A stretch of 64,000 nucleotides of DNA from Nanobdellota archaeon (GTDB lineage Archaea; Nanobdellota; Nanobdellia; Woesearchaeales; SKGA01), in assembly GCA_051819805.1 (NCBI GenBank), contig JBNJHD010000001.1, forward strand, positions 8,962 through 72,961, in the 5' to 3' direction. The position numbers were made by a program, and so were the translations under genes. Under the pieces are notes generated by a model. The model searched no databases and was not told where the DNA came from. It saw only the letters and a list, made by a program, of their open reading frames with translations. Positions 30,163 through 55,625 of the stretch are shown here, piece after piece. Positions within the stretch are counted from its first letter, which is position 1, and every line of letters begins with the position of its first letter.

Positions 30163-30221
30163 ATATTTTTCCTGACCGATAAGCTTTTTAAAAGCGTAAA
30201 GGTTCTCTCTTTTTCAAAGAC

Positions 30222-30572
30222 GGACCCGTGGCCTAATCTGGATAGGGCAGCAGCCTCCTAAGACAGTGGTCAGGGTGCGGCTGTAGAGCAAGTACAGTTA
30301 ATTTGTCCACTGTTTCGGCGAGAGCTGAAGCTTGGGGGTTCGAAACAGCTGGTTACGCTCAGCTGGCACGCATTAAGGGTTTCGTGCGCGTTGCACACTC
30401 AATCCCTTTGGGTTTATTCCCTTTTAATTGCTGCTTACGCTCTGTTGGCATGCATGTAGGGTTTCGTGCGCGTTGCACACTCAATCCCTTGTTTTTTTCA
30501 TGTCGGCTTTAGTTCAAAGCTGGCTTACTGTGTCAAGCGATGTGACTGCTGACGAAAGTCCCCTCGGGTCCG
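30222..30572 (+). tRNA. Putative tRNA-Arg (anticodon CCU) interrupted by two or three introns, including a ~214-nt insertion in the T-loop; no encoded CCA; followed by a T-run
   Basis: 5' acceptor GGACCCG (30222-28) is perfectly complementary to CGGGTCC (30565-71). D-arm GCCT/AATCTGGATA/GGGC; anticodon stem GCAGC with loop CUCCUA.. T-stem GGGGG + TTCGAA (30334-44) is completed by T + CCCCT (30559-64) only after removing 30345-30558. Exon ttcg / intron cgaa could form the 4-bp core of a BHB-like motif. TTTTTTT follows at 30575. Confidence 0.45.
30376..30490 (+). repeat. Two identical 33-nt direct repeats (AGGGTTTCGTGCGCGTTGCACACTCAATCCCTT) separated by 49 nt, each able to fold as an imperfect hairpin
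   Basis: Exact copies at 30376-30408 and 30458-30490. Ends are inverted (AGGGTTT / AATCCCT) with an inner GTGC..GCAC palindrome. Located inside the putative T-loop intron of the tRNA-Arg locus. Confidence 0.6.
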
Positions 30573-30705
30573 CGTTTTTTTACTTCTTTTGTGTAGTGCG
30601 TATACTTCTTGCTCTTGAAAATTGTCATCCTCTTATCGTCATACTTCGTGAACCAATACTTTTATAAAAGGGTTTAATCCTATCAATTGCAGAGGGTTGA
30701 GTACT

Positions 30706-32618: not shown

Positions 32619-35600
32619 TTGGTCATACTTAAGCGTACTTTAATATTTTTTATGCTGCTTAGTGTGGTGTTGTCGGGCGTAGCACTGACAATAGCTGCAT
32701 CTAGCGGGCAATCTATCAATCTATCTAGTTCTGGGACTCCTGTTTCTATCCGAATACCATCCCTGACTTCTGAAACCTTAGAACTCACCCTCTCAGGCAA
32801 TGAGTATAGTCCTATCGAGACGAAACGAGACCCTATACGCTACAACGATCCGGTCGGATGGCAGCTCATCCTTTCTAACGGCACGACCAACAAGAGTATT
32901 GACTATACCACACCCGAAATAACTGTCGATGAAAGCATTGATACGACTCCCTCGTCATGGCTTGCGACAATCACATTCTCAACACAAGCATCAACGACGT
33001 ACACTGACCTGCCATACACATTTGAAGCACCGACAACAAGAGATATAGCAACGTCCTCGCTTCTCAGTAAACTGTCAGCAGCAAATGACAGTGTAAGTTT
33101 TATACTGCCACAACTTCATTCTGAACGGACTATCATTATCACAGGAGCACTTGGTAACGGGACGTCACGAACTGCAGTGGCGGAAACTCCTGAAGGGATT
33201 TACACGATTGAGTTGAGCAGCGGTATTCCTGAGGAATTCACTGTGCAAAACGCTTCAATTTCAACCAAGCTTGAAGAACTCAGGACTAACCAGACTCTCA
33301 CTATGCATTTACACGCTCCTGTGGCACTTGATTCAGCAACGACATTCTATATCTGGAACCAAAAACAAAGCGAAAAAATTCCTCTCAGCTATTCTCTCGA
33401 ACATAATGGCACGCTGGCAATCATCAATATACCTCCTTCTCTTCTTGAAATGTTGAGCTTGCCAGAAACATCACAATACTTCTACGGGAATCTCGAACTG
33501 GCAATGGATAATGCTCGGTATTTCACATTCACCACGGATAAAGAATTCTACTTCCCTGAAGAGACAGTGACATTTAACATCCTCCCTGAGAATACGTCAT
33601 CGTTCATCTACGTGACGACTCCTTCTGGAGAACCTGAACTTATTACTGGAACAGAATACACTCCGGAAGTTCCAGGAACCTACACTGTTGATGCCTCGCT
33701 CTATCATGAGAATATCAGTGAAGAACAGGCTCTCACATTTGATGTTCTCAATGCCACTCTTGCAAATCAGACTGAGGATGAGATCGTTCTGGAATTCAAC
33801 AATACCTATGAAGGACAGCAAAAGACTATCAGAGCATCAGTCAAGATTCCTGAACATGCTCGAGACGTTGCCCAACAACTCAATACACTAGAGCAAGAAA
33901 TCAACGTCCTGAAGAAACAAGACGAATTATCAGAGTCATTGAATGCTGTTCAACAGGGATTCAGTGCAATGAGCGCATCAACGAATATGATACAGCAATC
34001 AAATGCTCCTGCTTCTGTGAAAGAACAGATTCTTCAGAAACGCCGGCTTCTCACGCAGAAACGAGAAGAGCTCAAAGAACGAGTCAACAATAGAGTAAAT
34101 GCGACAGTCAATCTCGCTAATTCATCCTCAGACAGGGTCAAATCAATCGCATTCAACAACCTGGAAATCAAGAACGACACGATCGATCTCGGATTCAAAG
34201 AAGATGTCGATATCAACGAAGCGACTTCAAGTTTTGCAGTCGATCCAGAACGAATTAATTTCACGAACGCAACTATCACAGTCAATGCGACAGGAAATTA
34301 TCTATACAAGTGTCGCGATTGGAATTTCAGCGGTCAATACTGTCCGGAACCAGTAACTACCTGTACTGGAGTCAAAGGTGTAAATAGGAGTTGCGAGACC
34401 TATGGCGGTTGGAAGAAACTCAAGAAAGTCACACCAGGACAACTCTACACGATTTCCGTAGTACCGAAAGACCCTGCGTATGCAGAGTATGATGCAACGT
34501 ACACTGCACCTTACTGTAACGTGAGCGAGTCACCATGTATCGCTAACTCGAGTGTGCTCATGTCTTCAGGCACATATACTAACCAAAATGAGCCTAACGA
34601 GCCCAATACAGTTGATGCTTGTACTGATGGTGGAAGCGGTACGTATGAGTCAGATGAGTATGTCCAGAATGTCACGATCACCAGTCTCAATAACAGCAAT
34701 TTCCAGACTGGAGACACAGTTAACGTGTCAGCATGGGTTCATATTTGGGGGACTGCTGATGATGTCGTCAACTTCGTTTACGCAAACGATGCATCAAGCC
34801 CGAGTTGGACAGTCAAGGCAGGAGATGTTCCTCTCGATGGAACCGGCTACCAGCAAGTGAGCACGACATTCACGCTTGATGAAGTGGTGGGAGACCATGT
34901 CATACGAGTGCTCAACGAGTATCAAGGAGCGGCAACGACTACCTGTGCAAGCAACGGATACCATGATAACGATGATGTCGTCTTCAAGGTTGATAGGAAA
35001 TTCAATGTAAGTAATGCCCAATATAATTCGACATTCGGAGCACCATACTGTAGTTACGGGGCAAGTCCATGTATTGCGTATTCAGAACTTCTCAAATCAG
35101 CAGGAACATACACTAATCAGGAAGAGCCGAACTATCCGAATACAATAGATGCATGTAGTGATGGTCATAGCGGTACGTATGAAGGTGATGAGTACGTTCA
35201 GAATATAACAATTGAAAGTCTGAATCATAGTACGCTGCAAGCGGGAGACACTATCAATATCACCGCATGGGTGAATGTTTATGATGCTGCAACTGATGTA
35301 GTGAATTTTGTTTACACGAATGATGCATCATCTCCTTCATGGACGGTGGTTGATGGAGATGTTCCTCTCGGAGGAACCGGCTACCAGCAAGTGAGCACGA
35401 CATTCACGCTTGATGAAGTGGTCGGAGATCATGTCATACGAGTGCTTAACGAGTACAACGGTGCAGCAACAACTACCTGTGCAAGCAACGGGTATCACGA
35501 TAACGATGATGTCGTCTTCAAAGTACAACAGGCTGATACAGCTATCAACTGGCTAAATGAAACTTGGAAGTGGAGAATGCCATTCAACATTTCCAATACA

Positions 35601-38600
35601 GCCGGAGATCTTACTGGTTTCCAAGTTCAAGTCAATCTCACGCCTAGCAACTTTGACTTTGAAAAAGCGAACGCAAACCTGAGCGATCTGCGATTCACGT
35701 ATTACGAACCTGATGCACAGACTGAAATCGAGATCCCTTACTATATAGAATCAAATACAAGTCTCGATTATAGCACAGACGCATACACTGCCAATATATG
35801 GATAAGAACTGATTTGGTCAATGATACGAACACCACACACTATGTCTACTATGGAAATCCTGATGCTCAAAGCGAATCGAATGCAAGCGCGGTCTTTGAT
35901 TATTACAATGGTTTCGAAAGCGAAGTGGGATTCACAGATGGTGATCTCACCCTGACCAGAGATACCAATTCATCAAAGAAAGGAGATTTTGGTGTCACAG
36001 GAAATGGCGGTGGCACTCATACTCAGGCATATCGGAGTGGTGTGAATAGTGGTAGGGATGTGATCTTTGAAGTCTGGACGAAGTCATATGATGATGGGGG
36101 AAGCCAGGATACATCCCTTGCCTCTATCGCATTCGGTCATCCTAATGCAGGCGCAACTACTGATGGTTATCAAGCATTCATCGATGAGAGAGACAACGGT
36201 GAAGCATTCGGTCTCAGAGAAAATTATGGTGTTGGAACTCTTACTGCTTCGGCAACACCATTGACATATTATAATACTTGGTACTTCCAACAAGCGATAT
36301 GGAAATCAAATGGAGAGCTCGTCCACAATCTATATGATGAAGATAAGAATCTTCTTGGTTCAATAACAGCGACAGACAACACCTATACGGATGGAGAGTA
36401 CGGTCTCGGTTTGTGGCAGGCAGCACACTTCGATGAGTACAGGGTGCGAAAATACGCAAATCCTACTCCTGGAATAAGCGGTACTGGTGACGGAGAATTC
36501 GTCGGAGTCATAAACGTCACTTTCGACGAACCTACTGATGGTGATAGTACAGATACGTACAACAGCTTCACGATGAACGGTACTGTCGAATGCATCCGAG
36601 GAAATGATTGCGGTAATATCAGTGTCTGGTACCAATACTACACAACAAGCACGCCAACACAATCAATCACCGAGACCACGACAGCAGACTTCGCAAGCTA
36701 TGAGAGTGAATACAACACGTCACAATCAAACGGCAAACTCTATCTGGAGAACAAGAACTCGGAAACCAGCTGGTGGGATGGTCTCTGGCTGTACAGGCAG
36801 AACTTCACAGTCTACAATCCGAACAGCGATACAATCACTGATTATCAAATCAATCTCCAACTGAACAGTTCAAACACGCAAAGCAACTTCCCATGGAGCA
36901 ACTCAGCAGAATTGCGATTCGTCGTGTATGACAATGATACTGGTGACACCACTCTGGTGGATCACTGGGTTGAATCATGGGATCAAAGCGGTCAGAACGC
37001 AAGCGTCTGGGTTGAGATTCCTGAGTTTGAAGCGCTCAATGATACGATACTGCACATATACTATGGGAACAGCGGAGCGGCAGATATCTCCAACGCTTCA
37101 GCAACAATGCTCTATCATGATGATTTTGAGGATGGAAACGATGATGGGTGGACAGAAGAGACAGGGTCGTGGAGTGTCACAAGCGGTGAATACCAACAGA
37201 CGACAGATATCACTGACTATCTCATCTCATCAGCGGGAAGCAGTTCGTGGACAGATTATACGGTAGAAGCTGATATCAACGTGACAAACGATGGATCGAC
37301 ACGACCATTCGCCGGTATCGTGACACGATTCCAAAATACTGATAATTATTATGTGGCTGTGCTTGATGACTCTACAAACCTTGCAATAAGAAATAGGGTC
37401 GGAGGGGCGTGGGATGTTCAGAACGACTACACGATAAGTTTCGATACTCTTGATTGGACGCATTTACGAGTCGATATCTATGATGATGGAGGACAAGATA
37501 CAGTCAAAGCCAGTGTCAACGGCTATACGCATGCACATAATTTTACCAATTTCAACTCTGGAAAAATTGGTCTTTTCACGCACGGCCACCAACCATACTT
37601 CGATAACGTCATCGTAAGGACATTCGCAGAACAAGAGCCGGTCATCACAGCAGGAACTGAAACAACTTTGGAGAGAGCATCACCGGGAGAATATCTCTCG
37701 GACGTGTTTGATACAGGATCATACGATGCTCAGTTCAAAGGAATAACCTGGAATGAAGAAACAGATGCTGACACGACACTCAACATATACACGAGAACAT
37801 CTCCTGATAATGTATCGTGGTCGAACTGGTTCTTAGAAATATCAGGAAATACTATCAGTTCACCAAAGGATAACAGATACATCCAATACAAGGCTGAGAT
37901 GGGCACGACCGATACTCAAAAGAGTCCCTTGCTTGATGATATCACTATCAATTACACTATTTTAAGCAAGTCATGGAAAAATATTTCTTTATCAGGTCAG
38001 ACCTTCACAACATCAAATCCTTATGAATGTGCTGTTCTCAGTGATAATTGCACACCATCATTAACTGTTCTACCAAAAGAGTTTGGTAATTATTCGCTCA
38101 GGTTCTTGGTTGATAATAATGATTATGATATTATCGATACAACAACTGAACCTCATAATATTACAGTATATCTTCAACCATCCTTTTCCTCGTTCACAGC
38201 AACAGTGAATCCGGTATCTATTAACGATACTACTGAACTCTCAGCAGTACTAGTTGATGGATCTTCCCAATCATTATCAGGATATAATATTACTTTCTAT
38301 GATGAGACACATAATGGTACTGACAGGTATGAAATAGGATCGACACTGACTGATGCTTCAGGAGTGGCAACTATTGATTATCAAGTTCCTATTGATGGAC
38401 AGCTCTCGATTCACACGCTCAACGCAAGCTATGCTGGCGACCTATCTGAGTTCAAGAAAGGAATTGAAGTTACTCGTTCTCTTACAGTCTCTTCAACACC
38501 TAAGTTCAATGCTATTTCAGTCAATCCTGAAAATATCGGTTTCGGAAAGAACCTGACAATCGCAGCCAACATCACAGATGCTGTCGGTCTTTCAACAGTC

Positions 38601-41600
38601 AAGATCAACATCACGGACGAATCAGGAACGACAACACAGTATGACATGGCATTATCAGGACAGTTGTACGAATATACATTCCCTGAAAAATGGGAGACTG
38701 AAGAATATGAGTTCATGATTATAGCAACGAATAATGATGGTATAAGATCAATTTCAGAAACTAGATCATTTGCAGTAGATGTCACTGCAGAATTCGATAT
38801 TGTTACTGAGAAGGATGAATATAAGAATGAAGAACTTGTCAATCTTAAACTAGTGAAAGATGGTTGGTATTATCTTGGATGGACACACCGGACTCCAATC
38901 ACTGTTGTAAGCCAGAACAAACTGAAAGACTTCCAGATATCGTTTGAACTAGATGAAGAGAACTTTCAATTCAATCAGGCTAATGCTGATGGAAGCGATA
39001 TACGGGTAACATATCTCAATAAAACTAGTGGAAACGAGGAAACAATTCCTCATTGGATCGACTCATTCAATAGAACGTCAGAAGAAGCAACTATCTGGGT
39101 AAAAACACCTCTTCTGGATGATGCTATTGATAATGTATTCTACATTTATTACGGAAACGATACTGCGACAACGACAAGCAACGGTACAGATACATTTCTC
39201 TACTTCGAAGACTTCGAAGGAACATTTACCTGGACTGACTATGGTTCAGGAAGCGTTGTGAAAGACTCGACAAGGTCATATGACAACACTTACTCCGGAC
39301 ATAAGATCAACAACAACGATCCTAACGGTGCATACGATGATGTTGGTTTCACGTTCGGACGTGATGTCATCATGGAATTCTGGGTGAATAGGAACGCAGG
39401 ATTTACTGGTGGAAACCAAGATAGGGTTGGTTTCATCGATAATAGCGGTAACGGTTATGGATGGGTATTTATCCATAGTGGTTCTGAAATCGCAGCAGAC
39501 AGGCGTGATTCATATACTGGAAGTAATCTTCCAGGAACAACTGCTACTGATTATACTGACACATGGGTCTTCGGTCGGTTCGTGGTCAAATCGAACGGTG
39601 TCGTAGAAGCATACCGATATGTGAATGACACGTTAGCAGGAAGTATGGCAATCACAGATAATACATACAATAGTTTCACACGAGCATATATCTTTGGTGG
39701 AAACGATTACTGGGTGGATGATATCAGGATCAGGAATTATGATGCAGGAGTCATCGAAAAACAATACAAGATGACAGAACAAGGAATCCATGGACTCCTC
39801 AACAAAGGAGATACTGAATTTGAAGGACAACTAAGAATGCTCGTCCAGGAATGGACAGGATCAAGCTGGCAGAATATCATGCCACCTGTTGTTGAAGATG
39901 AATGGACGAATGTCAGCGGATATGAAGCAATCGAACTTTCAGGTCTTTGGGATGCAAAAGGTGCTTGGAACACTTCAAACCGTGATTCAGGAACATACAG
40001 AGTATATGCTATTATGGAAGATCCTTCCTATAATACGCTATACACTACAGATGGTCAACCGCTTATCGGAACGTACAATTTCACGATCATACAATCATCA
40101 GTAGAGCTGGAAAACCTCACTCACGAGAATGAACATGAAGACACGATCAACGAATACGAAACAGGAGATGTCATCGACTGGATCAACGCGACTGTCAAAG
40201 CGTATGACAACACAGCGTACAATGCCTATGTTAACCTCTCACTCTATGATGATTCTAAACAACCTCTTCCATGGGGGCCTCAAGAAGAGCTCAAGAACTG
40301 TGGAACACTGACTGAAGGAAGCACATGCGAACGACAGTGGACGAATTCCAGCAACGGTTACATCATTCCTCAAGATGCAATTGCAGGAACCTACACCTTC
40401 TACTGGAATGTCAAGTCAGATTCCGATAATGGACCTGTCAACATCAACGACTCAACATCATTCACCATCCACAGTGTCCCATCAACAGTCTCAAGTGCTC
40501 TTGAGAAGATCCGTGTAGAAAAACCTAACTCTACACTCTACAACTTCACGTTCACGAACCCTTGGAGCGAATCGCTCACAAGTACGACTGCGACAATCAA
40601 TTGTCCGACGATGAGCGGCTTTGAGTGCGATTCACTCGTGTCAGGAACAAGAACTGAAAATATAGGTACGGTCACTTCTTCAGACACAGTTACGGTACAG
40701 TTCAATGTCTCGGCTAACGAAAGCGTACCATCCGACAACTATAACATCTCAATAGAACTCAATTACACTAACCCTGGTGCTGAAGATAAAAGCTGGTCAG
40801 GACTCGGTGAGCAGATTGTGGAAGTGAGAATCGCAGGTATACTCGAGATTACAGACTTTTACCATCCTAATAATATTACACGAGGTATCACTTATGACTT
40901 TGATTCCCATATGAACAATTCAGCAGATAATACTGCCAATAATGCATGGTTGAACTACACCTTGCCTGCATCATGGCAACTCATCTCAGGAACCTTAAGC
41001 ACAACTTTCGGTAGTCTTGCACCTGGTGAGATCGGTTGGAACAATATCTCTGCACAACCAGAAGCAGATGCACCTCTTGGACCACGTCAAGTGCGTCTCG
41101 ATTCCGGAGCCGATGATGGTAGGTATGATTTCAAGGTATATTCGGTTGATGTGTACGCTCAAACAAATATCAATGCTTCAAAAGATCGTTATATCGTCAA
41201 CAGAGGAGAGAATGTTAATCTTTCAGCAACATTATATTATGACAACTCATCAACTATCAACGGTCAAGAAATCGAATTCGTCGACACGCGAACAGCGACA
41301 ACAATCGGAACTGCAACAACTAACACGAGTGGAGTAGCGACCATCCCTTATTATATCAACTCAACATCTCCGCTTGGAACTCACACAATAAATGTGACTT
41401 TTGATGGTAGCGTGACTGACTATCTCCGTCCAAGCTATAACACCACAGATATCAATATTCATGAAGTACCTGAAATATCGAATATAGTGATTTCTCCAAA
41501 TGTGACCAGCTATGGACAGGACATATGGATTAACGCGACGATAACAGATACTGATGATGTCGATAGCGCATGGTATGAGATCACATTCCCTAACGGCACT

Positions 41601-44600
41601 GCAAAGAATTATTCGATGAACAATATTCCTCCTTCAGACTACTATTCAATATTCAATGATACGTGGCAGAACGGAACTTACTCTATAATCATCTATGCGA
41701 ATGATACAACATCTGCACGATCACAAAGCGAAGAATTATTCATCATCGACAACGCTGATCTGACACTAGGACTCTTGACAGATTATCCTTCTTACGGACA
41801 GAATTCGGATGTCAATCTGCTGCCGACCACTGCAACGACGTGGTGGAATACGAATTACGGATATAAGCGAGTGAGAAATATCACGAACACTGCAGGAAAC
41901 CTGACCGAATACCAATTCTTCATTGAAGAGAACCTGTCACAAGCATATGCAGATGACCTTATCAACGATGATTGTAAGAGTGTGAGGTTCACTTATTATA
42001 ACAGCACTTCAAGAAAAGAAGAGAGAATACCATACTATGTTGATTATTGTAACTTGACCGTCGAAGATAATGCCGGGTTCTGGGTGAAAGTTCCTTTCCT
42101 TGAAAATGATACTGACACGAGAATTTCAATGTATTATGGTAACACGCAAGCGGACTCAGAAAGCAATCTCACTGAAGTATTCACCTATGATACTAGACAA
42201 ACAATAGGTTATGTCGTTTCAGATCTCACTGCAACAAATGGAGTGACGTTGACAGGAATAACTGCTGAAGGGTCGAATGTGCAAGTGGGAGGTTCAGTTT
42301 ATACTATCGGTGAGCTCCAGACAAGAACCCCTGGTACTTTAGAAGTATATGACCCGATCAAAGCAACGAATCCTGTACAAGTCGAAGGAAATGGTGCATA
42401 TGATGGTGTTGTCGTTCCGATATCATGGGCTTCAACAGAGTTCCTGCTCGCAGGAATGAGGGGAACAGAAGATTTCTGTATGCTCAGTCCTTGGGGTGAT
42501 GCTAGTGTTGACATCTATGATGGAAGCAGTGGAACGCCTGAGTGGAGTGGCACTATCAATAACACCGGAAACTGTATCAATAACGATATTACTGAACGGA
42601 ATACCGGACGTATCACTTCGGACAAGCCAATTCTCTTATTCAAGTCAACTTCCGATAGCAATGACGCTTATCCTGTGTATCCGGCTACAGATGAAGACTT
42701 ATATCTCGCTTCACTTTCCAATCAAGGGTATGTGGCTGCGGGAACGACAAGCACGACTGTTGACTTCTACGGAAGCAGTGGTGGAACAGGTTCAGAAACG
42801 ATACAGAATGTTGATGCGAATGCTGCCACTTACCTTACTACTGGAGATTCAGGATCAGGAGATGCAGTACGGTTCTCTGCAGATAATCCTGTAGGAGCTA
42901 TCCAGCAGGCAGACCATGACGGAACCGAATCCAGTGTTGCAGTACCTCGAAAAGAGATGAGTCCTGAATTTGCAGCAGCACATGACGCGCAATATATTGC
43001 TGTAGTGTCTGGCGATCAAGATGTTTCTTGTAGCATTTACGATACGAATGGACTGGTAGCTACAAACACTACAACGGGAAGCATAGCTAATCGTGTCTAC
43101 AAGACCTGCTTCGGCTGTGGCAATGATAATATCTTTGTCAATGGTCCGTGGAAGTTGGAATGTGACAAACCAGTGTGGGCGTATTATGAAGAGAACACTG
43201 ATGATGCGGAAACGAACATGATCAGTTATAAGCAGATGAGAACGAAAGTCTATCCAGAACCTGTAGTTTCAGAAAGTGAAGAACAGCAAGTGGGATCGCA
43301 CATATTCAACGACTTTGAAGATCAGGCATCAGGATACCTCTACCTGACAATCCAGACAAACAACTCAGGAAGCTGGCAACATGTCGATACAGTCGTTGAT
43401 GACATATCAACATCCACAAAAAGGGATATTCCACTCGTCTCAGGTCTCGATCTTTCATCAATATGGAATGCCACTCCGTGGAATACTGCCAATTATGATG
43501 CAGGAACATACAAGGTGTATGGTGAATTAAGGGCTCCTGATGGTTCTGTCCTTGAAAACACTAACGGGTCTGACATCAATGGATACTGGACTTTTACCAT
43601 CGAAGAACCCGATCTCCAACTTGATCTTGATGATATAAGAATATATGATCTTTCAAATACTGATAACTCAAATTGGCATTATTATACGAACGATCTTGAG
43701 GGTTCGGGTCTGAACACAACCTATACTTTAGGAAAAGATAAAATATACAGGGTTGAGGTTGATATACTCAATTCAGGAAGTTCCACATGGGATATCAACG
43801 AGACAGATGTGGATTACAATTATTTGAATAGTGTCTGGCCTGTCAATGAGACAGATGATATATGGTATTCAGATAAAACATCAATCTCCGATCGGAGAAA
43901 CGATGCTACAAAAACAACAGGTTCATTCGATGGGAATGTCTCATGGGATACTCTTGCTGATGATGGTAGCGTGAGTTCCTCAGGAACAGCAACGTTCTTC
44001 TTCATAGTCAACACGAGCACTGAAGAGACAAGACAAGTGAACTTCAATATAGAACACAGCACGTTCATCAAGAGTGATTATTCTACGTGGGAAATTATTG
44101 ATCTTGATGAAGAAATACCTTATATCATCAATGATAATTATAACATCACTACACTTGATATCATCCGAGGTAATGATTTAACCTTATTCGGTCAATGGAA
44201 TGAAGAGATTGATATGGCTAATGCCACCTACTCCACTTCAGGTCCTTCGACATATGTCACCACAACAGACACTAATCCTGGAGGAAACTGGACGAACTTC
44301 ACGATAACAAGCTATCCGACATGGTATCTGGGAGATCATGATGCGAAGCTCACTGCAAAAGACAAGAGCGGTAATGTGAATGACACGCTCGCTTATATTC
44401 CGTTCACAATCTGGGGTCTGGCGCAGATAGAGAGTATGACGTCAGATAACGAACCAGCAACAGAGCAGGAAAACGCAGTCTATGACACAGCTTATACAAC
44501 ACCATATTGTAACTCAACACGTTCACCATGTGTCGCTAACTCGAGCCTGCTCATGTCTTCAAATTCATATACTGATCAAAATGAGCCGAACCAGCCGAAT

Positions 44601-47600
44601 ACTGTTGATGGCTGTGCTGATGGTGGAAGTGGAGGATATGAAAGTGATGAATACGTCCAGAACATCACTATAGAAAGCTTGAACCATACGCTCATCCAAC
44701 GAGGAGACACGGTCAATGTCACAGCAACTGTATATGTTTATGATACCAATTCCGATTTTGTCAACTTCGTCTATGCGAATAACGCGTCAAGTCCAAGCTG
44801 GACAGTCATGGCGGGAGATGTGGCGCTGCCTGGAACCGGCTATCAGCAAGTGAGCACGACATTCAAGCTTGATGATGTATCAGGAGACCATGTCATTCGA
44901 GTCCTCAACGAGTACAATGGAGCAGCAACGACTACCTGTGCAAGCAACGGCTATCACGATAACGATGATGTGGTTTTTACCGTAGCAGAAGAGAATATTC
45001 CATTGCGATGTAAAGTGGTCGATGCGACAGACAGCGATAGTCCTATAGAAAACTATAACGTATCATTCTATAACAATGACGGACTGCTTGACTGGAAACT
45101 GACAGATTCACAAGGATACGCATATTACAGGTATTATGATCAGTCTCCAGGACCTGAAACACTCTCCTGTAAGATAAGAAATGATACAGTCAATTATTAC
45201 AAGACAGACAGCAATAACGAAAGTTCAATCAATATCAACACACTAGAAGATATTCCGCCGACATACTCAAGCGTTTCAGGACCTACGCCGGTACACAAGG
45301 GAGATGTCATTACGCTCTCGACATTATGGCAGGATAACTATCAACTAGACACTGCAACACTCCAGATAAACACGAGCGGAGCATACGTCGATGAAGATAC
45401 TATTGCTCTCTCTGGAAATGAGAGCTGGGCGAACTTCAGCTATACAATCTCTAACTCATTGCTTCCAGGAACCTTCGGGTGGAGACAGATCGCAAACGAC
45501 ACGTCAAAGAATACGAACCAGACTCCTGATCAGACATTAGAAGTGTGGGGATACTCGCGAGTCGATTCTTCATCAATCTCGCCTTCTAGCATCCAGGAGA
45601 CGAACAGCACGACGATGACATGTACAGTGCAAGATGCAGGTGACAACAGTGGACTTCAGGACTATGCAGTCTACTTCTGGTACAAGAACTCAAGTGAAAG
45701 TACATACACGGCTCTCGGTAGCAACACTACAGATGCAAGTGGACAGGCGAGCTACTCGTTTGTCGTTAATACAGCAGCAACATATGATGTGAAATGTAAT
45801 ATCACTGACAATGCAACGCAACAATATAATGTATCAAGTCCTGATAATAGGATTGAAGAACTGAATGTTATCGTAGGTGATGATACCCGACCGCCACAAA
45901 TCATCGGAGAAAACTATACAGTCACACCATCTCTGGTTCACAGAGGAGGCTGCATCGATATTTCAGGATTATGGGATGAAAATATCAGCGAAGCGTACGT
46001 CAGATACAACCAGACATCAACTGAATATACGCAAGTGAACATCTCAAGCCCGTACACTGGCAACTGGACGAACACGACCATCTGCACGAACGAGACATGG
46101 GATCTTGATGACTATACGTTCAAACTATTTGCAAAAGATCTAGAAGGAAATCGTAATGACACGCTCTCCTACAAGACAGTCGCAGTCAAAGGGCTGGCTC
46201 AACTTGAATGGGATGCGCCGACAGGAGACCAGAACAGGACTACGCTGAATGTCAGCTGTAAGGTCATCGATAACGAGACCGCTAACCCTATATCCGGATA
46301 TCCAGTAACGTTCTACGATGGGGATAAAGGTATTTCAATAGGAAATGATGATACGAACGCTTCAGGAATCGCACAGATACAATACGATTACTCGGGAGCG
46401 CTTGTCGGACCTGATGAACTCTCATGTACATTCAGCGATGAACCATCGCTCAACTACGAAACGACAGGATCAACAACTGTCTCAGAGACAATTGACTTCT
46501 ACGGATACCTCAACGCGACAATAGCAACCCCTGTTTCCGACCAGATCCTCCACAGAGGAACTGGAGAGTCGCTAGAGGTAAACGTCGTCGACGAGTTCGG
46601 TAACACGCCGCTTGACCAAAACGGCAACACAGCAGCGCTGTCAGCGATCTGGAGAAACGCTTCTTCAGACCAGATAGCGACAGGTACGACCACTACCTGG
46701 AATGTTCCATCAAGTTACCAGCTCGGAAGCGATACTCTAGAAGTCGATGTCTCTGAGACTTATTATTACCCTGACAACGATAGCCAGAACGTAGAGATAT
46801 GGAGCTATGCGCAAGTGGACTTGACAAGCCCGACTGCAGACACATACGGTGCTGGAGTCAATCTTGATATCAACTGTACCGTGACTGACGAAGCAAGCAC
46901 TGATTCTATTTCCGGCTACGATGTCAACTTTTATGATAATGGGGCCTTGCTCGGCACAGGGACAAGTGATGCCGCTGGAGAAGCGAGCTTGACCGTCAGC
47001 ACGGACACGCTCGGAGATGGCAGTCATGACTTGAGCTGTAACATCAGCGACAATCCTATAAACTATTATGAGGCAGGAGCGAACAAGGAAGATCTCGTCA
47101 GCATAACAGTAGACGGCTCGACACCGGAAATCTCATACGCTGCCAATACGGATACGAACGGAACGTATGACAAGACATGGATACTCGTCAATGTCACGTC
47201 AGTAGAAAGCAATCCTGACACTGCACTGCTCTACTGGAACGGAGTCCCTGAAGAATTCACTTACACGGACGGAACGAACTACTGGGTCAACAAGTCAGTA
47301 CTCTCAGACGGCAATTATGAGTTCTATGCGTACATCAACGATACAGCCGGCAATGAGAACCAGACCGGACTACGGAACGTCACGCTCGATACGACAGCTC
47401 CAGTAGTCACGCTCGACAATCCGCTCAACACGACATACAACACGTCATCATTTGATCTCAATTATACAGTCGTCGAAGAGAATCCTGATACGTGCTGGTA
47501 CAAGATAGACAGCAATCCGAACCAGACGATAGCAGGCTGTTCCAACATCACGATAGGATCGCTCGGCGAGGGAACACATACAGTCGTTATAGCAGCTAGC

Positions 47601-50600
47601 GATACGGTCGGACATGTTGACGAGGACAATGTCACATTCACGATAGACCAGACACTACCACAAGTCACAATAGATAACCCAGTGCTCGGTGTTGAATACA
47701 CTGATAATGATGTCGATCTCAATTACACAGTCAGTGATGACAGGAATGTGGATGAATGCTGGTATAAGCTCAATGGTGGAACCAAAGTCGCCATGCCAAG
47801 CTGCCAGAACACGACACTTACCAGTCTATCAAACGACAACCACACGATAGAAGTCTTCGCTAACGATACGGCAGGAAACATCAACTCATCATCACTCTGG
47901 TTTGAAGTGAACTATAGCGTGCTCACAGCAACACCACTTTATCCCGATAATGATACGATCATTGCCAGTCAGACGATAAATGTCAATGTCACGACGAACA
48001 AGCAGGCGAACGAGTGTAACTACTCTCTTGACGGTGGGGCTTATACTCCGATGACAAACTATACGTTGCTGGACTGGTCAGCATCAGCAGGTCCGCTCAC
48101 TGAATCAACACATAACGTCAGATTTACCTGTACAGATGGTATCAACACGTCAACGACAGATTTGGTCTATTTCACGATCGACGTGACAGGACCGACGATC
48201 ACCTATGAACTACCTACACCGGGAGATGGTGATGGTCGAGGAGTAGATTGGGCGGTTGTCAACGTCACGCTTGACGAACCGGGAGATACAGCGCTGCTCG
48301 AATGGGAGAACAGCACAGCTATCACGAACATCACGATGAACCAGCACAATAGCACCAGCTACTGGTACAACATGTCAGGACTGGCAGATGCGACGTACAA
48401 CTACACAGTCTACGCCAATGACACGATCGGCAACATGAACAACGCTTCAACACGAGAAGTGATCATATCAACAACAGCACCAGTCATACAACTGGATAGT
48501 CCGACAGCACAGGAATACACGACTAGTGTTATCGATCTGAATGTGAGTTCGAACATGGAAATTGATGAATGGTGGTATGAGTTCAATGGACGTAATTTCT
48601 CACTGATACCTAACACCACTATCACTGCAGAAATGAACGAGAATAAAATTACTGTCTATGGTAATGATACTTTCGGAAATATAGGAAATGAAAGCGTCAC
48701 GTTCATTGTGAATGCGACATCCTGGACGGATGACTTCACTGGACTCACAGGAATTTCCAGTAGCAGTAATGTAAAAACCGGAGGGGCTGCTCAGATCGAT
48801 CCGTGCTGGCCACTCTATCACGAAGAGGACAGTGACGACTATAACAGGGATACGTGCTGGCATTATCGAAAACCAGTAACAATAAGCGCGTCATCGCAGC
48901 TTAAAGACTACCAGATGCTACTCAACATCGACTTGAGCACTGAATACTCGCAAGGAAAACTACAGGATAACTGTGAAGACCTCAGATTAAGCTATTACAA
49001 CAGCACGAGCGGCGATGACCAGAAGATCAGTCACTGGATAGAAGATTGCAGCGACAAGAGCAACATCAGCGTGTGGGTCAAATCACCGCAGATAGACACT
49101 AGCTCGACAACACTGCATGCCTATTATGGAAATGACCGGGCAGGAGATAGTTCCAACGGAACGGCAGTCTTTGAGATGTTTGATAACTTCAACACAGTCT
49201 CATCGACGGACTGGGGAAGCAATGCAGCTAACTGGAACACTGAAAAAGGAGTGGCGTATCCGACTGTATCAGGATCAAGCTCCCGACTCACTCACGACTA
49301 TTCATTCGGCAGCACTTACGCAACAGAACTCTATATGAAAGCGAACGCGACAAGCGGTTCAGCAGGTTACTACGGACTTGGTAACGGTGCAGGAACAAAG
49401 TATTTACGACTCTATCTTGAACCGTCAAATAATAGGGTAAGTCTCTACAATGGAGCGAATAATTACTACTCTCTCGATTCAGGATCGTACCAGAAATACA
49501 CTATCATCTCAGACTATACGAATGATGAATACAAACTGCTCATCAACAATTCACAAACAGCACTTGATCTCTCATCAGCAGCATCATCAAGTACATCGTC
49601 GCCCACGTTCTATTCATACTATACTAACGGTCTTTATCTTGATCACATAGCGATAAGGAAGTATGCAGGTAATACTCCTTCCATGGATGCTATTGGTGCT
49701 GAACAGCAACCGACAGTCAATGGATCAGTGGAAAGCATTGTCGTCAAACCTCTCGAACTCTATAGTTGGGATACGTTTTCAGCAACAGTAAATACTCCTG
49801 GAACGACCAGTCTCACCTTCCACCTACTTAATGAATCGGGAAGCGATCTCTGTGGTGACATCTCTGAAGCACAGATAACAAGCGGTTATGAAGTCTGTAG
49901 CGCTGCAAACTCATATGATAGTATTGTTCTTCAGGCAAACTTGACGACAGCTTCATCATCCGAAACACCGCAGATAGACTCATGGACCATCAACTGGAGC
50001 GAAACAATAACGACACAACCTGATCTCATCATCAATTCGATAAACTTCACGCCAGAAAGGTTCATCGAGAACAAGAACGTGACTGTCAATATCAACGTGT
50101 CAAACAACGGAAGCGCGGACGCAGGAGAATCAACAGTTAGGCTCAATGTCTTGCTCTGGAAAGGGAGCAGGATTCTCAAGAAAACATACGAAGAGAATGT
50201 GACTTTACCAGTAGGAGCGTCGACAATCGTCAGCTTCAACTGGACAGCAGCCATAGGAACGCACATCTTTGACGCGTATGCCGATGCAGATAATGTTATT
50301 CTCGAAAGCAATGAGACAAACAACAACCTCACAGTCAACGGTTCCACGTCAGCATGGCAGACGTTCTACGGGAACTACAGCTATACCTACTTCCTAGGAG
50401 ATGCTGATAATAGGAGTTACATGAACTGGTCAAACTTCGTCGCAAAAGGAAACATATACTATTCAGATGTGGATGCCAGCTACTATCCATTCGACCTGCA
50501 ACCGCTTGACGGAACGAACGACTTCACAGAAGCGGATACAGCACTTGGCATGACATACTTCAACGATTCCATCAGTAAAGAATTCGACAGCAATAATGAT

Positions 50601-50981: not shown

Positions 50982-52130
50982 GTGAAACAAGCAAGAGCGA
51001 AAAATAGAGCGGGAAAGACGGCTCTGTCAGCAACCATGACGATGGTGATGCTTCTAGTCATCGTGCTATCCTTAGCAGCGCCTTTCGCACTGACACAAAA
51101 CGAGACCAACTCTTCACAGGTTGTCGTTGAAGAACTTGGTGAAGAAGAAAATACTACTGAAGTCACTGATTCTGACTTGAATGAATCTACAAACAATGAG
51201 AACGGGACAGCCGATGTTGACGTTGCAAATGAAACCTCGAACGAGACTGATACCGAAACTACTGATGATAATCAGACAGTGAATGATTCACAAAAGAATG
51301 AAACTATCCTCTTTGGTCAAGATTCTGAATTTTCAAACTCTACTAATATCACCAACGAATCAGTCGTTGATGATAATGATACATCGCTAACTCCTGGTTC
51401 AAACGAATACGGACAGTACTATGAACTTGGCTCTGATAACCAGATGGCAGAAAACGAATCGATCACAACAGATACTGATGAGAATGATTCAATAAAGCTT
51501 GTTTCTGGAGAAGTCATTACTGATACTGATATTACGACGAATTCATCATCATATTATATAGAACTTGATGAGACTGCAGAACCACTAGAACTCAATGTTT
51601 CGGTAGATGGGACTGAACAAGGAGACGTGCAAATTGATGTGCCTGTGAAATTCACACAGGAATTGTCTGTCACGAATGTCGCTCCTTCAGAAGTCGAACT
51701 GACGATCAACCTCTGGAAACTCAGAGGCGTGGATGATGCGCTTCTCAACGACATGAACTCTCTCGAGATTACATCGAATGGAACTCTCATTTCAGAACAG
51801 TCCTTGTTTCCATTACGATTGGAAGCGAATGAATCCAAAAATCTGATGATCACTTATACGCTACCGGAAGTCACTATGACAATGGAATGCACTGAGAAAA
51901 CTATTGAAGATGTACTACCTGAAGACGCGACGATAACAGAAGCGGAACTCAATATCTCGTCAGTGCTGACCAAAGAATGCTCCGTACAGGTAGCGCATGA
52001 TGGTTCTGCTGTGTATGAGGATGTGACTATTCCTCTGGATCAGGTTGATGTGAAAGACTTGATTACAGTGATTGATGCTTCGACAGGTGACGAACTGCCT
52101 ATTATCAATGGAACTATAATGATGGATTGA
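50982..52130 (+). CDS. Secreted, highly acidic S/T/N/D/E-rich protein with N-terminal signal/anchor
   Basis: N-terminal basic region plus hydrophobic segment (TMTMVMLLVIVLSLAAPFA) then low-complexity acidic sequence with many sequons. Stop overlaps the next gene. Confidence 0.5.
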   Translation: MKQARAKNRAGKTALSATMTMVMLLVIVLSLAAPFALTQNETNSSQVVVEELGEEENTTEVTDSDLNESTNNENGTADVDVANETSNETDTETTDDNQTVNDSQKNETILFGQDSEFSNSTNITNESVVDDNDTSLTPGSNEYGQYYELGSDNQMAENESITTDTDENDSIKLVSGEVITDTDITTNSSSYYIELDETAEPLELNVSVDGTEQGDVQIDVPVKFTQELSVTNVAPSEVELTINLWKLRGVDDALLNDMNSLEITSNGTLISEQSLFPLRLEANESKNLMITYTLPEVTMTMECTEKTIEDVLPEDATITEAELNISSVLTKECSVQVAHDGSAVYEDVTIPLDQVDVKDLITVIDASTGDELPIINGTIMMD

Positions 52131-52138
52131 GATTGAAT

Positions 52139-53788
52139 ATGAAACATAAAGAACGAATTCGTGCATTGGCGTTGGTTCTTGTAGCTGTAGCGCTATTATT
52201 CACTATCTCTCAATTTTCCCAAGCTGACTCGGTTGATGTTCTCGCAGGCCGATCTTACAAAGTAAGTCTGGAAGCGAATGCTCCAAGCGGACGATGGGCT
52301 GGAGTCACGATAAGTCATAATGAAGTAGAACTTGATGAGAGTAACTTGCCCTTCGGGTCCATACGATTCGATACTCCTGAAATTGAAGCTCGTCAATTCC
52401 CAGGTAAAAATCTCAATGATGATATTCATTATTACGCAGCGATGTTCGATGAGAGTTTCAACCTGACACGAGTCCATAATGTCACTGTAGAAGATCTCGA
52501 TCCGAACGAAATGTTCGATCAAACGGACTTTCCTGATTTTTATCCAGATTATCTTTCTTATGGCGATAATCCCAAACGAACATTTGAAGGGAACACGACT
52601 GACATATTACTTGGTGGAGAGAATTTTACAGCATTTGTCATGACACTAGCTGAAGATGTCACCTACTATCTGCTCCGCTATGATGAAGGAAGCAACAAAC
52701 GACCATTGTTTCTCACGCATCTTGATTACCAAACCTGTTACAAGGGTCAGGAATGTGTTGGTGAATTCATGCTTCCTGTTTCACCGAACGAATATAATTT
52801 TTATGCATTGAACAAGTATACTTCTTATGATTACAGGATATGGGTTGATGGAGTGGAGACTAACTCCTTCAGCCAGACAGCTCTGCCATATAATCTCACT
52901 GTGGAAGTATCAAATCTTTACACCAGTCAACTGGAACCAGGAGTCGATGTTTTAGTGGGAGAGCACAATGGTCAAAATATCTTCATCCCCTATAGGATGT
53001 CAGGGTATATCAGCGACTCCTACACTGTAGGAACGGCAGATGCTGATGCAATGGAAACGTTCCTAGTTGCACCGACAGTCTATCCATCAGTAGATAATTA
53101 CACTATATTCGTAGCAGTCCTCAAAGAAGGTAATCTCTTGAGTGAAGAAGAGCTCTATGTCAATTCGAAAGACACGCTTGTACGGTTCTCAAAACCGCTC
53201 TCGCCATCAACACTATATGATAATGCAAAAGCATCAGTCAATGCAATGAGCCAGATAGCGAACTCGTTGTTCAAATGGTCAAGCCAATTCCTCTCATCAA
53301 AACGTTTCAAGATCAGCTATGATATATCCTCGGATTCATTCACTACATACGATTATGAAATCAGTAGCTATCTACCAAGTCCTATCTCGCTCAAGACAGG
53401 GGCTCCGAATGTCATTGAGACTTCTGTAACTGATGGTGGAACACCACAGTCAGATTATATGATCCGGATTTCAGAAAAGGATGGATATCTCATCATGAAT
53501 CCGTATACAGAATCATCTCCGTTGTCTGAAAAGCAGAGGTATCATCGTCAAAGCGTTCCTGTATCACAGGAATTCATTATCACGCCAACAAGCCTTGGAA
53601 AGATTGATTCGAATGTGACCTTCGAAGTCCTTGATTACAGAGGAGAAATTGTAGCTGAGAAGCAATTCAATGTCACTTCAAGTCTGGTTTATACAGGAGG
53701 CGTATATTTTAACAATGACCAGCTGAAAACGATTGTAAATGCGATGAATCAGGTCTTGAGTTCGTTGTATTATTCGTTAAATTTTTAA
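52139..53788 (+). CDS. Secreted protein of unknown function (signal peptide, sequon-rich)
   Basis: Signal peptide ALALVLVAVALLFTISQFSQA|DS; no recognisable catalytic motif. Confidence 0.5.
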   Translation: MKHKERIRALALVLVAVALLFTISQFSQADSVDVLAGRSYKVSLEANAPSGRWAGVTISHNEVELDESNLPFGSIRFDTPEIEARQFPGKNLNDDIHYYAAMFDESFNLTRVHNVTVEDLDPNEMFDQTDFPDFYPDYLSYGDNPKRTFEGNTTDILLGGENFTAFVMTLAEDVTYYLLRYDEGSNKRPLFLTHLDYQTCYKGQECVGEFMLPVSPNEYNFYALNKYTSYDYRIWVDGVETNSFSQTALPYNLTVEVSNLYTSQLEPGVDVLVGEHNGQNIFIPYRMSGYISDSYTVGTADADAMETFLVAPTVYPSVDNYTIFVAVLKEGNLLSEEELYVNSKDTLVRFSKPLSPSTLYDNAKASVNAMSQIANSLFKWSSQFLSSKRFKISYDISSDSFTTYDYEISSYLPSPISLKTGAPNVIETSVTDGGTPQSDYMIRISEKDGYLIMNPYTESSPLSEKQRYHRQSVPVSQEFIITPTSLGKIDSNVTFEVLDYRGEIVAEKQFNVTSSLVYTGGVYFNNDQLKTIVNAMNQVLSSLYYSLNF

Positions 53789-53831
53789 ACGCTTATGGCT
53801 GGACAATAGGTAAAAGAGTGTGAGTGCAAAC

Positions 53832-55625
53832 ATGAAAGCAAGGGAAATCACGAAAACAATCTTCATTCTAGTAATCATCACGCTCTTTACAGCATCAGTA
53901 ACTGCAGAATCAGGCAGTTTCATATCACAGAATCCGATGAACCCTTCCGAATATGTTCAAGCATCATCACTTTATTTCACCGGAACAAGTTCCGATCCTG
54001 GAAACCTGTATCTGGATGCGTATGGTGCTAACGAGGACATCGGAATACAACTATGCGATGTCGGACAACGATACGTAGGCGGCTTCTACGCGATGAATAT
54101 AGGAGGAGCATGGGAATCCTCGCTTGTGACGTATTCCTCGAGCAGTGAAGCACTCGCTTACACGTCAGAAGATACGGAGAGCGGCTGTTACGGCACAGTG
54201 CCTGGTTTCGTCACGATATCACCGTCTCACCTGACAACATCTGATCCGGATGTCTACAAGGCAGCTTTGCCGGGAAATCTCTGGATAGGGTATGATACCG
54301 GAGCGAACCCTGGAACTGTGAGTGATTTTGTCTTTTCAGGAGGGGATGCGAAACTACGAGGGGATTATAACGTCCAACGTTCCTTCGATCAATCAACACG
54401 ACAGATTGCTGCTCAAACTCCGCAGATACAATTCAGGACATCATCAACATCATTCTCGAAACCAGCTTCGGATTCATCATTCGGCATATCCTCTTCCAGA
54501 CAGATGGTTATGGGAGTCTGCGATGACGATTACGGACAATTCTGTTCAGACGGACAGTTATTCAGTTCTCCGACGTTCCCTGCAACTTTCGATACAGGAC
54601 TCGGAGAGAGCCAGGTGAACGACCAGCAGATACACACGAAGTATGTTGTCATGAACGGAATCGGAAAAGAGATGTGCATCGGAGCGAATCTCAAGTCCCA
54701 GATTTCTTCAGTAACTCCTGATCCTGTCTATTATAGCCAGAATCTAGAGATACAATTCGCTATCAACAATCCACGTGACACTCCGTATGAGACCTATGGC
54801 GGTAACGTCGATGTCACGACACCGTTTGACGTGCGGTTGCGGATCTATGAAGCAGCAGACCCCTCGAATGTCGTCTACACGGATACATTCACAGTGTCAA
54901 GCTCTGTGCTTTCAGAAGGGTCCTTACCATATATCATTAACTGGCCTGCCTTTGAGCATAGTGGCATCTACACGGTAGAGATTGATGCTGATATCGGTGG
55001 AGATATCACTGAGTGTAATGAAGGGGATAATATCGCTACAATGAATTTTGAGCTACTCCCGATTACTCTTCCTGAAATCAACATTGATGGTCTGGAACTG
55101 GATTCATTCCCTGTGCCTAATGTGCCGTATAATGTCACGTTCCACATGGAAAACTCTGATGGTGATGTGCTACGAAACGCTAATGTCATCATGACTGAAA
55201 AGAATGGTCTCAACCTGGCAGCACCCACACAGACTTTTGAAGCAGACATTGATGATATGGGCAATACTGAAAATCGAGGAGTGGTTTCAACGTCACAAGC
55301 TTATTTCATGACAGATTATTATGGTAATGTGAGTTTTACGTTCATACCAACATATAACAAACTCTATTTCGATGGGTCAGGAGTCAATCTCAGTGAATAT
55401 GTAGGTAATTACTCGCTCTCATTCACTGGAAACCAATCCGATGGAGAGAATTTCAAGTTCGTCCTCAATGGTTCGTTAGAGTCCGATTATCCTCTGACTA
55501 TCGACAATAAGAATTATACAGGACCATACAATCAAAAAGAGCTTCCTAACAAGAATATGGTCTCTCAAGTACTTGACTATGCATACCATGCTTATACTAA
55601 CTTTATCGAAACACTAGTCGGCTAA
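53832..55625 (+). CDS. Secreted protein with CARDB-like segment
   Basis: Signal peptide (IFILVIITLFTASVTA|ESG) and a CARDB-like stretch (VEIDADIGGDITECNEGDNIATMNFEL). Confidence 0.5.
   Translation: MKAREITKTIFILVIITLFTASVTAESGSFISQNPMNPSEYVQASSLYFTGTSSDPGNLYLDAYGANEDIGIQLCDVGQRYVGGFYAMNIGGAWESSLVTYSSSSEALAYTSEDTESGCYGTVPGFVTISPSHLTTSDPDVYKAALPGNLWIGYDTGANPGTVSDFVFSGGDAKLRGDYNVQRSFDQSTRQIAAQTPQIQFRTSSTSFSKPASDSSFGISSSRQMVMGVCDDDYGQFCSDGQLFSSPTFPATFDTGLGESQVNDQQIHTKYVVMNGIGKEMCIGANLKSQISSVTPDPVYYSQNLEIQFAINNPRDTPYETYGGNVDVTTPFDVRLRIYEAADPSNVVYTDTFTVSSSVLSEGSLPYIINWPAFEHSGIYTVEIDADIGGDITECNEGDNIATMNFELLPITLPEINIDGLELDSFPVPNVPYNVTFHMENSDGDVLRNANVIMTEKNGLNLAAPTQTFEADIDDMGNTENRGVVSTSQAYFMTDYYGNVSFTFIPTYNKLYFDGSGVNLSEYVGNYSLSFTGNQSDGENFKFVLNGSLESDYPLTIDNKNYTGPYNQKELPNKNMVSQVLDYAYHAYTNFIETLVG

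Follow-up and report, generated by a model that had tools for sequence, protein, structure and literature searches.

We analysed a window of 64,000 nucleotides (64 kb, G+C content 43%) from a Nanobdellota archaeon (contig JBNJHD010000001.1 of assembly GCA_051819805.1), which contains exactly two copies of a sequence of 33 nt, AGGGTTTCGTGCGCGTTGCACACTCAATCCCTT, both on the + strand (30376-30408 and 30458-30490). A first-pass annotation had placed these repeats in a putative intron in the T-loop of a transfer RNA (tRNA) gene. It had considered that they might be a structured intron-borne RNA, a minimal CRISPR-like array or the ends of a tiny insertion. Here we describe the tRNA gene, its introns and the repeated element in the second intron, which we call M-H, since it consists of a hairpin with a linker (M) followed by the 33-mer (H). 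Related loci from other genomes carry labels of the form L001.

The repeats lie in a tRNA-Arg(CCT) gene at 30222-30572 (+) with two bulge-helix-bulge (BHB) introns, one of 62 nt at the canonical position 37/38 and one of 214 nt at position 59/60 in the T-loop. Neither ARAGORN with default settings nor Rfam calls a tRNA at these positions. When 30261-30322 and 30345-30558 are deleted in silico, ARAGORN calls a tRNA-Arg(cct) with the T-loop TTCGAAT, which bears out the T-loop intron context that had been proposed. The spliced sequence comprises exon 1 (30222-30260, tRNA positions 1-37), exon 2 (30323-30344, positions 38-59, with the 5' strand GGGGG of the T-stem and the T-loop bases TTCGAA) and exon 3 (30559-30572, positions 60-73). 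All three are 100% identical to the orthologous tRNA of the Woesearchaeal locus L001 (39/39, 22/22 and 14/14 bases); the GatE protein of L001 is 83% identical to that of the window. For intron 1 (30261-30322, +) the comparison with L001 gives only 48 identical positions in 87 aligned columns. About 30 nt upstream of the tRNA there is an A/T-rich, TATA-box-like element, CTTTTTAAAAG (30184-30194, +), which from its sequence would be the promoter element of the gene, and a block AAGCTTTTTAAAA is kept upstream of the orthologous tRNA in L001 and L011. Beyond the gene, a run of seven T (30575-30581, +) is a likely terminator, given that archaeal transcription terminates at oligo-T.

Intron 2 (30345-30558, +) houses the entire element. 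Its borders read GGGGG-TTCG-aaa-CAGC / GCTG-a-CGAA-agt-CCCCT and can be folded into a BHB of the relaxed form, that is, a helix of 4 bp with bulges of 3 nt on opposite strands and with an outer and an inner helix. The outer helix h is the T-stem (GGGGG/CCCCT) and the inner helix h' is CAGC/GCTG. The 5' half (30339-30345) consists of the central helix strand TTCG at 30339-30342 and the bulge AAA at 30343-30345, and the 3' half (30553-30559) of CGAA at 30553-30556 and the bulge AGT at 30557-30559. In a canonical archaeal BHB, cleavage takes place after the second base of each bulge. Cuts are therefore predicted after 30344 and after 30558, which would excise 214 nt, put the intron at 59/60 and restore the T-loop TTCGAAT. 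These two positions are the sixth and seventh of the T-loop and correspond structurally to 37/38 of the anticodon loop. They are also a documented non-canonical site of archaeal tRNA introns (PMC4090602). The helices of the BHB covary between loci. The central helix is TTCG/CGAA in the window, L001 and L011 versus TTCA/TGAA in L008 and L015, and h' is CAGC/GCTG in the window and L011, CAAC/GTTG in L001 and CAG/CTG in L008, while CCA/TGG is also seen. The junction of GAAAGT with the T-stem is kept in all complete hosts.

The repeat of the 33-mer is real, and neither a chance match nor an artefact: both exact copies are present as described before, no further copy was found in the window with up to three mismatches, and 100 shuffled sequences gave none. 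The segment of 49 nt between the copies, which had been taken as unique, is not. At its end it repeats, in diverged form, the 28 nt just ahead of the first 33-mer, so that the full repeat has a length of 61 nt (30348-30408 versus 30430-30490, 90% identical, period 82). The mismatches between the two units are unevenly spread: the first 31 nt hold 8 of them and the last 33 nt none (Fisher p = 0.0018).

Each unit starts with M, a hairpin of 7 bp with the loop UUACGC and the linker ACACGCAU, and ends with H, in which an outer and an inner stem covary around an invariant UUUC/UCAA junction. All of the following parts are on the + strand. M1 (30346-30373) has the hairpin CAGCTGG/TCAGCTG with the loop TTACGC at 30346-30365 and the linker GCACGCAT at 30366-30373. 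H1 (30375-30408), which includes the first 33-mer, shows the inverted termini and the inner palindrome noted earlier, as the outer pairing AAGGG/CCCTT and the inner pairing GTGC/GCAC, with TTTC...(C)TCAA as the junction. A linker that is not repeated (30409-30427) leads to M2 (30428-30457), a degenerate copy of M with a largely broken stem, in which the loop TTACGC is retained and which ends in ATGCAT. H2 (30458-30490) is the second exact 33-mer. As had been read before, it is followed by G, a run of seven T (30492-30498) and C. Minimum free energy (MFE) folds then give a second hairpin, GTCGGCTTT/AAAGCTGGC (30502-30524), and a tail, TGTCAAGCGATGTGACTGCTG (30531-30552), of which 30531-30551 is complementary to M1 and A 30552 is unpaired. 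The complementarity to M1 is imperfect; in the folds the tail closes the intron and forms the helix h' under the BHB.

To what extent the 33-mer is a hairpin cannot be read from its stability, since the fold of the 33-mer alone is unremarkable (-8.7 kcal/mol, z = -1.46). The earlier description of it as hairpin-forming holds nevertheless, because of the covariation among its relatives and not because of the folding energy.

A degenerate M pattern was run against 185,579 species genomes (one genome per species) and gave 10 loci in 3 metagenome-assembled genomes (MAGs). All Woesearchaeal copies of M directly follow the T-loop of a tRNA. At least five or six different tRNA genes from three related Woesearchaeota genomes carry the M-H core in a 59/60 intron, with one to three or more tandem units per intron, and the hosts that could be identified are tRNA-Arg(CCT), tRNA-Arg(TCT) and tRNA-Ala(GGC). 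The search for further copies of the 33-mer, as suggested in the first-pass annotation, has two answers: the exact 33-mer has no match in the 185,579 genomes, while the module to which it belongs is dispersed in other genomes. In metagenomes of the Joint Genome Institute (JGI) the M pattern matched only a duplicate of L009, and in viral contigs it had no match. The family is narrow and without a viral link.

The orthologous locus lies downstream of gatD-gatE. The organism of the window is a DPANN archaeon; its GatE, encoded beside the tRNA, is 100% identical to a protein of a 'Nanobdellota archaeon' MAG, and the relatives of this GatE are Woesearchaeota. In L001 the same tRNA has a T-loop intron of 269 nt with three tandem units. 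Two of these have the H form GTGCGTTTCCCGTGAAAAAACGGTCAACAGCAC and the last has AAGGGTTTCATGCACTCAAGCCCTT, followed by a run of six T and the same tail, and the segments between the repeats are identical. Three other assemblies of the species of L001 stop inside the M-H array (the ends of L002 at 8133, of L003 at 8115 and of L004 at 7310), which makes three of four contigs, and L014 starts inside it. The array breaks short-read assemblies, and the copy number in a single assembly should be treated with care. In L005 (GatE 71% identical) the same tRNA has an intron of 57 nt at 59/60 that does not contain the module, and in L018-L020 (GatE 60-71% identical) tRNA-Arg(CCT) is not next to gatE. In Woesearchaeon C1M08_52 the module comes right after the T-loop of tRNA-Arg(CCT), of tRNA-Arg(TCT) (L008) and of a third tRNA (L012). 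A 'Methanosarcinales' MAG has it in tRNA-Arg(CCT) (L011), tRNA-Ala(GGC) (L015, at least two units) and another tRNA (L006, at least two units). Finally, a Nanoarchaeia MAG has three free-standing copies outside tRNA genes (L009, L010 and L013), which are near-identical, have unrelated flanks and are each bounded by GGCTGACATT...GTCAGCT, with an inverted end of 7 bp (GCTGACA/TGTCAGC).

With these loci in hand, two of the earlier suggestions can be weighed. One is a degenerate mini-CRISPR, and it could point to two direct repeats of about 33 nt with hairpin potential, 49 nt apart, and to weak alignments with the CRISPR-DR families of Rfam. Nevertheless, the array would have only two copies, its "spacer" shares homology with the stretch preceding the first repeat, and the orthologous array in L001 has identical "spacers". 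The alignments to CRISPR-DR25 and CRISPR-DR36 (13.6-15.7 bits, E = 3-5, compared to gathering scores of 36-38) are noise, and no cas gene turned up in the neighbouring genes that were tested. The other is that the 33-mers are the terminal repeats of a tiny nonautonomous insertion, which would have split the tRNA. The 33-mers are direct and internal, though, and a miniature inverted-repeat transposable element (MITE) with the 33-mers as its termini was rejected, as both terminal inverted repeats and dispersed copies are missing in the window and in the 185,579 genomes. In L005 the 59/60 site is occupied by an intron that lacks any such repeat, and the repeats therefore did not create the split. 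We find either suggestion hardly credible. Among the 20 open reading frames (ORFs) of the window that were tested there is no transposase, integrase, reverse transcriptase or cas gene.

A third possibility is a plain tandem duplication within the intron that has no wider meaning, to which the first-pass annotation would have fallen back if the 33-mer occurred nowhere else and the region were neither transcribed nor processed separately. The tandem arrangement with a period of 82 agrees with it, and so does the lack of any other exact 33-mer in the window and in the species genomes. On the other hand, copies of the module are scattered across several tRNA genes and genomes and show covariation, the mismatches are not uniform along the unit, and an array of at least two units is older than the split from the species of L001 (see below). 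The 33-mer is thus found nowhere else, but duplication is not the whole story, and as a full explanation we regard it as very improbable.

The evidence for a structure at the RNA level comes from the comparison of the units. The M region (29 nt compared) is identical in unit 1 of L001, in L008, in L011 and in the Nanoarchaeia copies, and has 1 to 3 differences in most of the remaining units; between M1 of the window and unit 2 of L001 a single one of the 29 positions differs. The stem of M occurs as CAACTGG/TCAGTTG or as CAGCTGG/TCAGCTG. The H stems, the linkers and the tails are all variable. The outer stems of H are AAGGG/CCCTT, GTGC/GCAC, GGAAG/CTTCC or GAGGG/CCCTC, always around TTT(C/G)...TCAA, and the inner stems are all different and all paired. 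The second hairpin has compensatory changes as well (GTCGGCTTC/GAAGCTGGC in L008, GTGAGGC/GCCTCAC in L009, L010 and L013, GATGAT/ATCATC in L015).

Can this pattern be quantified? An alignment of the full elements with MAFFT and RNAalifold recovered only the M hairpin and misaligned everything beyond H, and a model-based alignment was used instead. The covariance model, R1, was built from only 4 units of two other genomes, the window being excluded. It recovers M1 and H1 at 30346-30410 (55 bits, E = 3.6e-12), M2 and H2 at 30428-30492 (27.7 bits, E = 4e-5) and every other variant, and nothing else in 174 kb. Neither R1 nor an nhmmer profile of M found more copies of M-H, whether in the 64-kb window or in the remainder of the fetched loci. 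In the R1 alignment 88% of the cells are paired, compared to 75% in column shuffles and 29-51% with slid partners. Both sides have changed in 11 of the 20 pairs, including 10 of the 13 pairs in H. The covariation score is 0.33 versus 0.145 and was reached by none of 500 shuffles. G-U pairs in the M stem, in the outer H stem of L008 and in the duplex of M1 with the tail favour the + strand, which is that of the tRNA, as the one that folds, while one C-A in the inner stem of the window points to the opposite strand.

We therefore read the 33-mer, with a probability of roughly 0.7, as the hairpin H of M-H, the conserved core of a small multi-copy RNA family in BHB introns at position 59/60 of tRNA genes. 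Of the earlier proposals, that of a structured intron-borne RNA is thus the one that stands, as the hairpin belongs to a covarying module within a T-loop intron. Over the element, in the window and in six related loci, no family of Rfam 15 was found at gathering or at permissive thresholds; with no description found in the literature either, the family is apparently undescribed. Several known RNAs were considered and set aside. A weak antisense likeness to human SNORD10 (E = 0.04-0.9) was judged to be due to chance, and the motifs required for an H/ACA pocket, a kink-turn or a hammerhead core are absent. A tRNA-derived origin of M and H, judged by eye from GGGTTTC..TCAA.CCC and GGGTTCAAATCCC, is suggestive but off register. 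M may also show complementarity to the region around position 1100 of 16S rRNA.

How would such an intron work? The duplex between M1 and the tail would present the bulges of the splice sites, the splicing endonuclease would cut after 30344 and 30558, the exons would be ligated, and the intron of 214 nt would be set free, probably in circular form. In DPANN archaea, endonucleases that have an extra loop are associated with disrupted tRNA genes (PMC5829648). M-H itself is most likely a small-RNA module that binds a ligand, protein or RNA, with the intron as its expression vehicle, comparable to an intron-hosted guide RNA. We favour a functional module because the interior is invariant and the ends are specific to the context, which is the reverse of a classical transposon: the ends are BHB-shaped in the tRNA hosts, and the free-standing copies have a separate closing stem. 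Going further, M-H could be an undescribed class of small RNAs, expressed from introns (perhaps as circles) or from a gene of its own, which would bind a partner through the UUACGC loop, ACACGCAU and UUUC/UCAA and pass copies of itself from one tRNA gene to another, possibly through reverse splicing at the RNA level. This wider proposal is tentative, and we hold it to be considerably less probable than the reading given above. One possibility for the partner would be an Sm-like protein on the single-stranded U tract between the hairpins.

Several points weigh against a functional RNA family. There are only about 10 distinct variants of H from 5 genomes, and the alignment in which they covary had itself been fitted to R1. 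On its 5' side the BHB of intron 2 has a non-canonical bulge, with the one unpaired A (30552) opposite. M2 of the window is degenerate, and so not every unit can be functional. No ligand or target of M-H was found, and beside the free-standing copies no partner gene is conserved, the neighbours being housekeeping genes. The run of seven T within the intron (30492-30498) is as long as that at the end of the gene (30575-30581) and should hamper the transcription of the 3' exon, yet everything beyond it is conserved. Splicing, circularisation and processing of M-H are, moreover, predictions from sequence, and the constraint at the RNA level could merely serve the harmless splicing of a selfish element.

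The T run also invites another explanation, namely that H together with the U tract is an internal terminator or attenuator, which would limit the amount of full-length pre-tRNA or yield a transcript of the 5' exon plus M-H. A hairpin followed by seven T (30458-30498), a U-rich tract after the last H in most members of the family, and a run of the same length at the gene's own end would all fit this. However, a scan for consensus terminators was negative at 30458-30498, the free-standing copy in L013 has no T run, and the upstream H copies in arrays precede other linkers. The second hairpin, the tail and the 3' exon are conserved with compensatory changes and must therefore be transcribed. Control of transcription thus seems improbable to us.

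The main rival is a purely selfish mobile intron, a MITE-like passenger whose structure is kept for clean excision, whose tandem units arose by slippage and whose RNA has no role of its own. Movement between tRNA genes belongs to our own reading as well. In Woesearchaeon C1M08_52, L008 and L012 belong to two different tRNAs and share 89 of 89 bases from the T-loop into the intron, measured up to the end of the fetched L012 locus, whereas the 60 nt upstream (the exons) match at only 16 positions. The orthologous tRNA-Arg(CCT) genes after gatE have two units in the window, three units of other variants in L001 (GTGC and AAGGG), one unit of the GGAAG variant in L011 and none in L005. Since introns are identical in different tRNAs and orthologues have different variants, the element moves or converts between genes. 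In our reading it would pass from one tRNA gene to another through intron transfer or gene conversion and spread inside a single intron through unequal recombination. M1 of the window resembles the second M of L001, and the ATGCAT ending of M2 is the same as in the last (third) unit of L001, so that two or more tandem units were already present when the species of L001 split off. The perfect identity of H1 and H2, beside 8 differences in M, would hence reflect a later (recent) homogenisation or selection on H and not the age of the duplication.

The same intron in two tRNA genes of one genome and the swapped variants of the orthologues are what a selfish intron would leave. The three near-identical free-standing copies with unrelated flanks and an inverted end in one genome fit it too, as does the degenerate second M of the window, and the intron 'transposition' in Thermoproteales is a precedent as far as it is summarised in PMC4090602. 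On the other hand, the loop of M, the linker and the junction of H are invariant across genomes while the ends vary, which is the reverse of what signals for mobility would show. H is kept by compensatory changes although it is far from the splice sites. The neighbouring genes that were tested include no transposase, integrase or reverse transcriptase, and viral contigs gave no match. In its pure form we consider the selfish explanation rather unlikely, and it and a functional module are not mutually exclusive.

It is instructive to compare the M-H introns with known systems. Families of tRNA introns shared between tRNAs have been documented in archaea (PMC4090602), among them the 'transposing' introns with non-canonical BHB of Thermoproteales (Fujishima et al. 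2010, in the summary of PMC4090602). Like these, the intron of the window is at the non-canonical site 59/60 beside a canonical intron at 37/38, near-identical introns occur in different isoacceptors of one genome (L008 and L012), orthologous tRNA genes differ in their intron content, and removal is presumably by the splicing endonuclease. Unlike them, M-H has its hosts among DPANN archaea (Woesearchaeota), and the two are likened here by their behaviour. The M-H introns are also long (146-322 nt in the hosts seen), with a conserved core of several hairpins and invariant loops, and the core occurs in tandem within one intron and also outside tRNA genes.

The best functional analogy for an intron as expression vehicle is the box C/D guide RNA that Euryarchaeota carry in the intron of tRNA-Trp (as cited in PMC4090602), a small structured RNA that an archaeal tRNA intron hosts and that splicing sets free. 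The M-H intron is in the T-loop, however, and not in the anticodon loop. It was rejected as a box C/D RNA, since 30345-30558 contains no C box (RUGAUGA), its single CTGA (30549) lies in the border helix, and the snoRNA matches in Rfam are not above noise. Circular tRNA introns have been documented in archaea (PMC3326292, PMC12558985), and metazoa have tRNA intronic circular RNAs (PMC4536317). A circle would be the expected fate of the excised intron of 214 nt, which is long and highly structured and could be stable. The known circular introns are not multi-copy families with tandem internal modules, and for M-H the circle is predicted.

With MITEs and palindromic elements derived from IS200/IS605, M-H shares that it is short, non-coding, multi-copy and rich in hairpins, and that its free-standing copies have an inverted end of 7 bp. 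In contrast to them, its ends vary by context, no target-site duplication was seen, no transposase is nearby, and the copies in tRNAs are bounded by BHB features and not by transposon ends. The invariant TTAC and TCAA are also the cleavage tetranucleotides of IS608, which we take as a lead only.

Some further observations concern individual loci. Two of the free-standing copies lie between long inverted repeats. The copy in L010 (about 900-1280, -) is between GGCTCTGTCCGGAAT...ATTCCGGACAGAGCC, with a TATA-like box upstream and a T run after it, which suggests a transcript of about 300 nt with paired ends, and the copy in L013 (about 2990-3400, +) is between GTTTAGCGGC..AAAGTT and AACTTT..GCCGCTAAAC. 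Both loci are without a match in Rfam. A naive scan for a BHB around the free-standing copies gave many chance matches and none that was convincing. In one subfamily (L008 at 6191-6265 (-), L011 and L012) a leader of 13-14 nt, CAGCTTTAGTCCAA, separates the T-loop from M. Its length is that of a tRNA 3' end (5+7+1 nt), and the 5' exon together with this leader is called as a complete tRNA-Arg(TCT) by ARAGORN and by Rfam (31.4 bits), while the T-stem would not pair; the leader could be left over from a donor tRNA or be due to chance. The CAZRUJ01 contigs (L011, L015, L006 and L017), which were deposited as 'uncultured Methanosarcinales archaeon', have the Woesearchaeal synteny arginase-GatD-GatE-tRNA-Arg and a GatE that is 77% identical to that of the window; the MAG is probably mislabelled or mis-binned.

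Elsewhere in the window there are two more tRNA genes that automatic calling misses, at least in part. A tRNA-Tyr(GTA) at 3057-3181 (+), with an intron of about 48-51 nt in the anticodon loop, lies immediately ahead of the ribosomal gene cluster S13-S4-RpoD; it is found by Rfam and by ARAGORN with the intron option, but not by ARAGORN with default settings. A probable class-II-like tRNA at about 6060-6158 (+), ending in GAGGGTTCGAAACCCTTCTCCCGCACCA with a genome-encoded CCA, is called neither by default ARAGORN nor by Rfam at the gathering score. A close homologue of it without an intron is found after gatE in L018 (3240-3322). Two genes downstream of the tRNA-Arg(CCT) gene, an ORF of 6089 codons spans 32619-50888 (+), and its syntenic gene in L001 has Peptidase_S8, Laminin_G_3 and CARDB domains. 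For the four large ORFs that come next (50982-58250), Pfam gave no match. They are followed by a chemotaxis cluster at 58730-63887 (+) with CheB, CheA with a CheW domain and a Cache-HAMP methyl-accepting protein, in a genome of the DPANN type. In summary, the ORFs of the window that were tested are housekeeping, chemotaxis or unknown genes, and none has a cas domain.

Archaeal tRNA introns are usually treated as short spacers, free of sequence constraint and defined by the fold of the splice sites alone. The M-H introns have a conserved and covarying interior of several hairpins, which occurs in tandem, is common to different tRNA genes and is also found outside tRNAs. Introns of this type hide tRNA genes from the standard finders and break assemblies. 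If the RNA is functional, M-H would be a new small RNA hosted by introns in DPANN archaea, a group about whose RNA biology hardly anything is known; a selfish M-H would be a clear case outside of Thermoproteales in which the spread of BHB introns can be studied.

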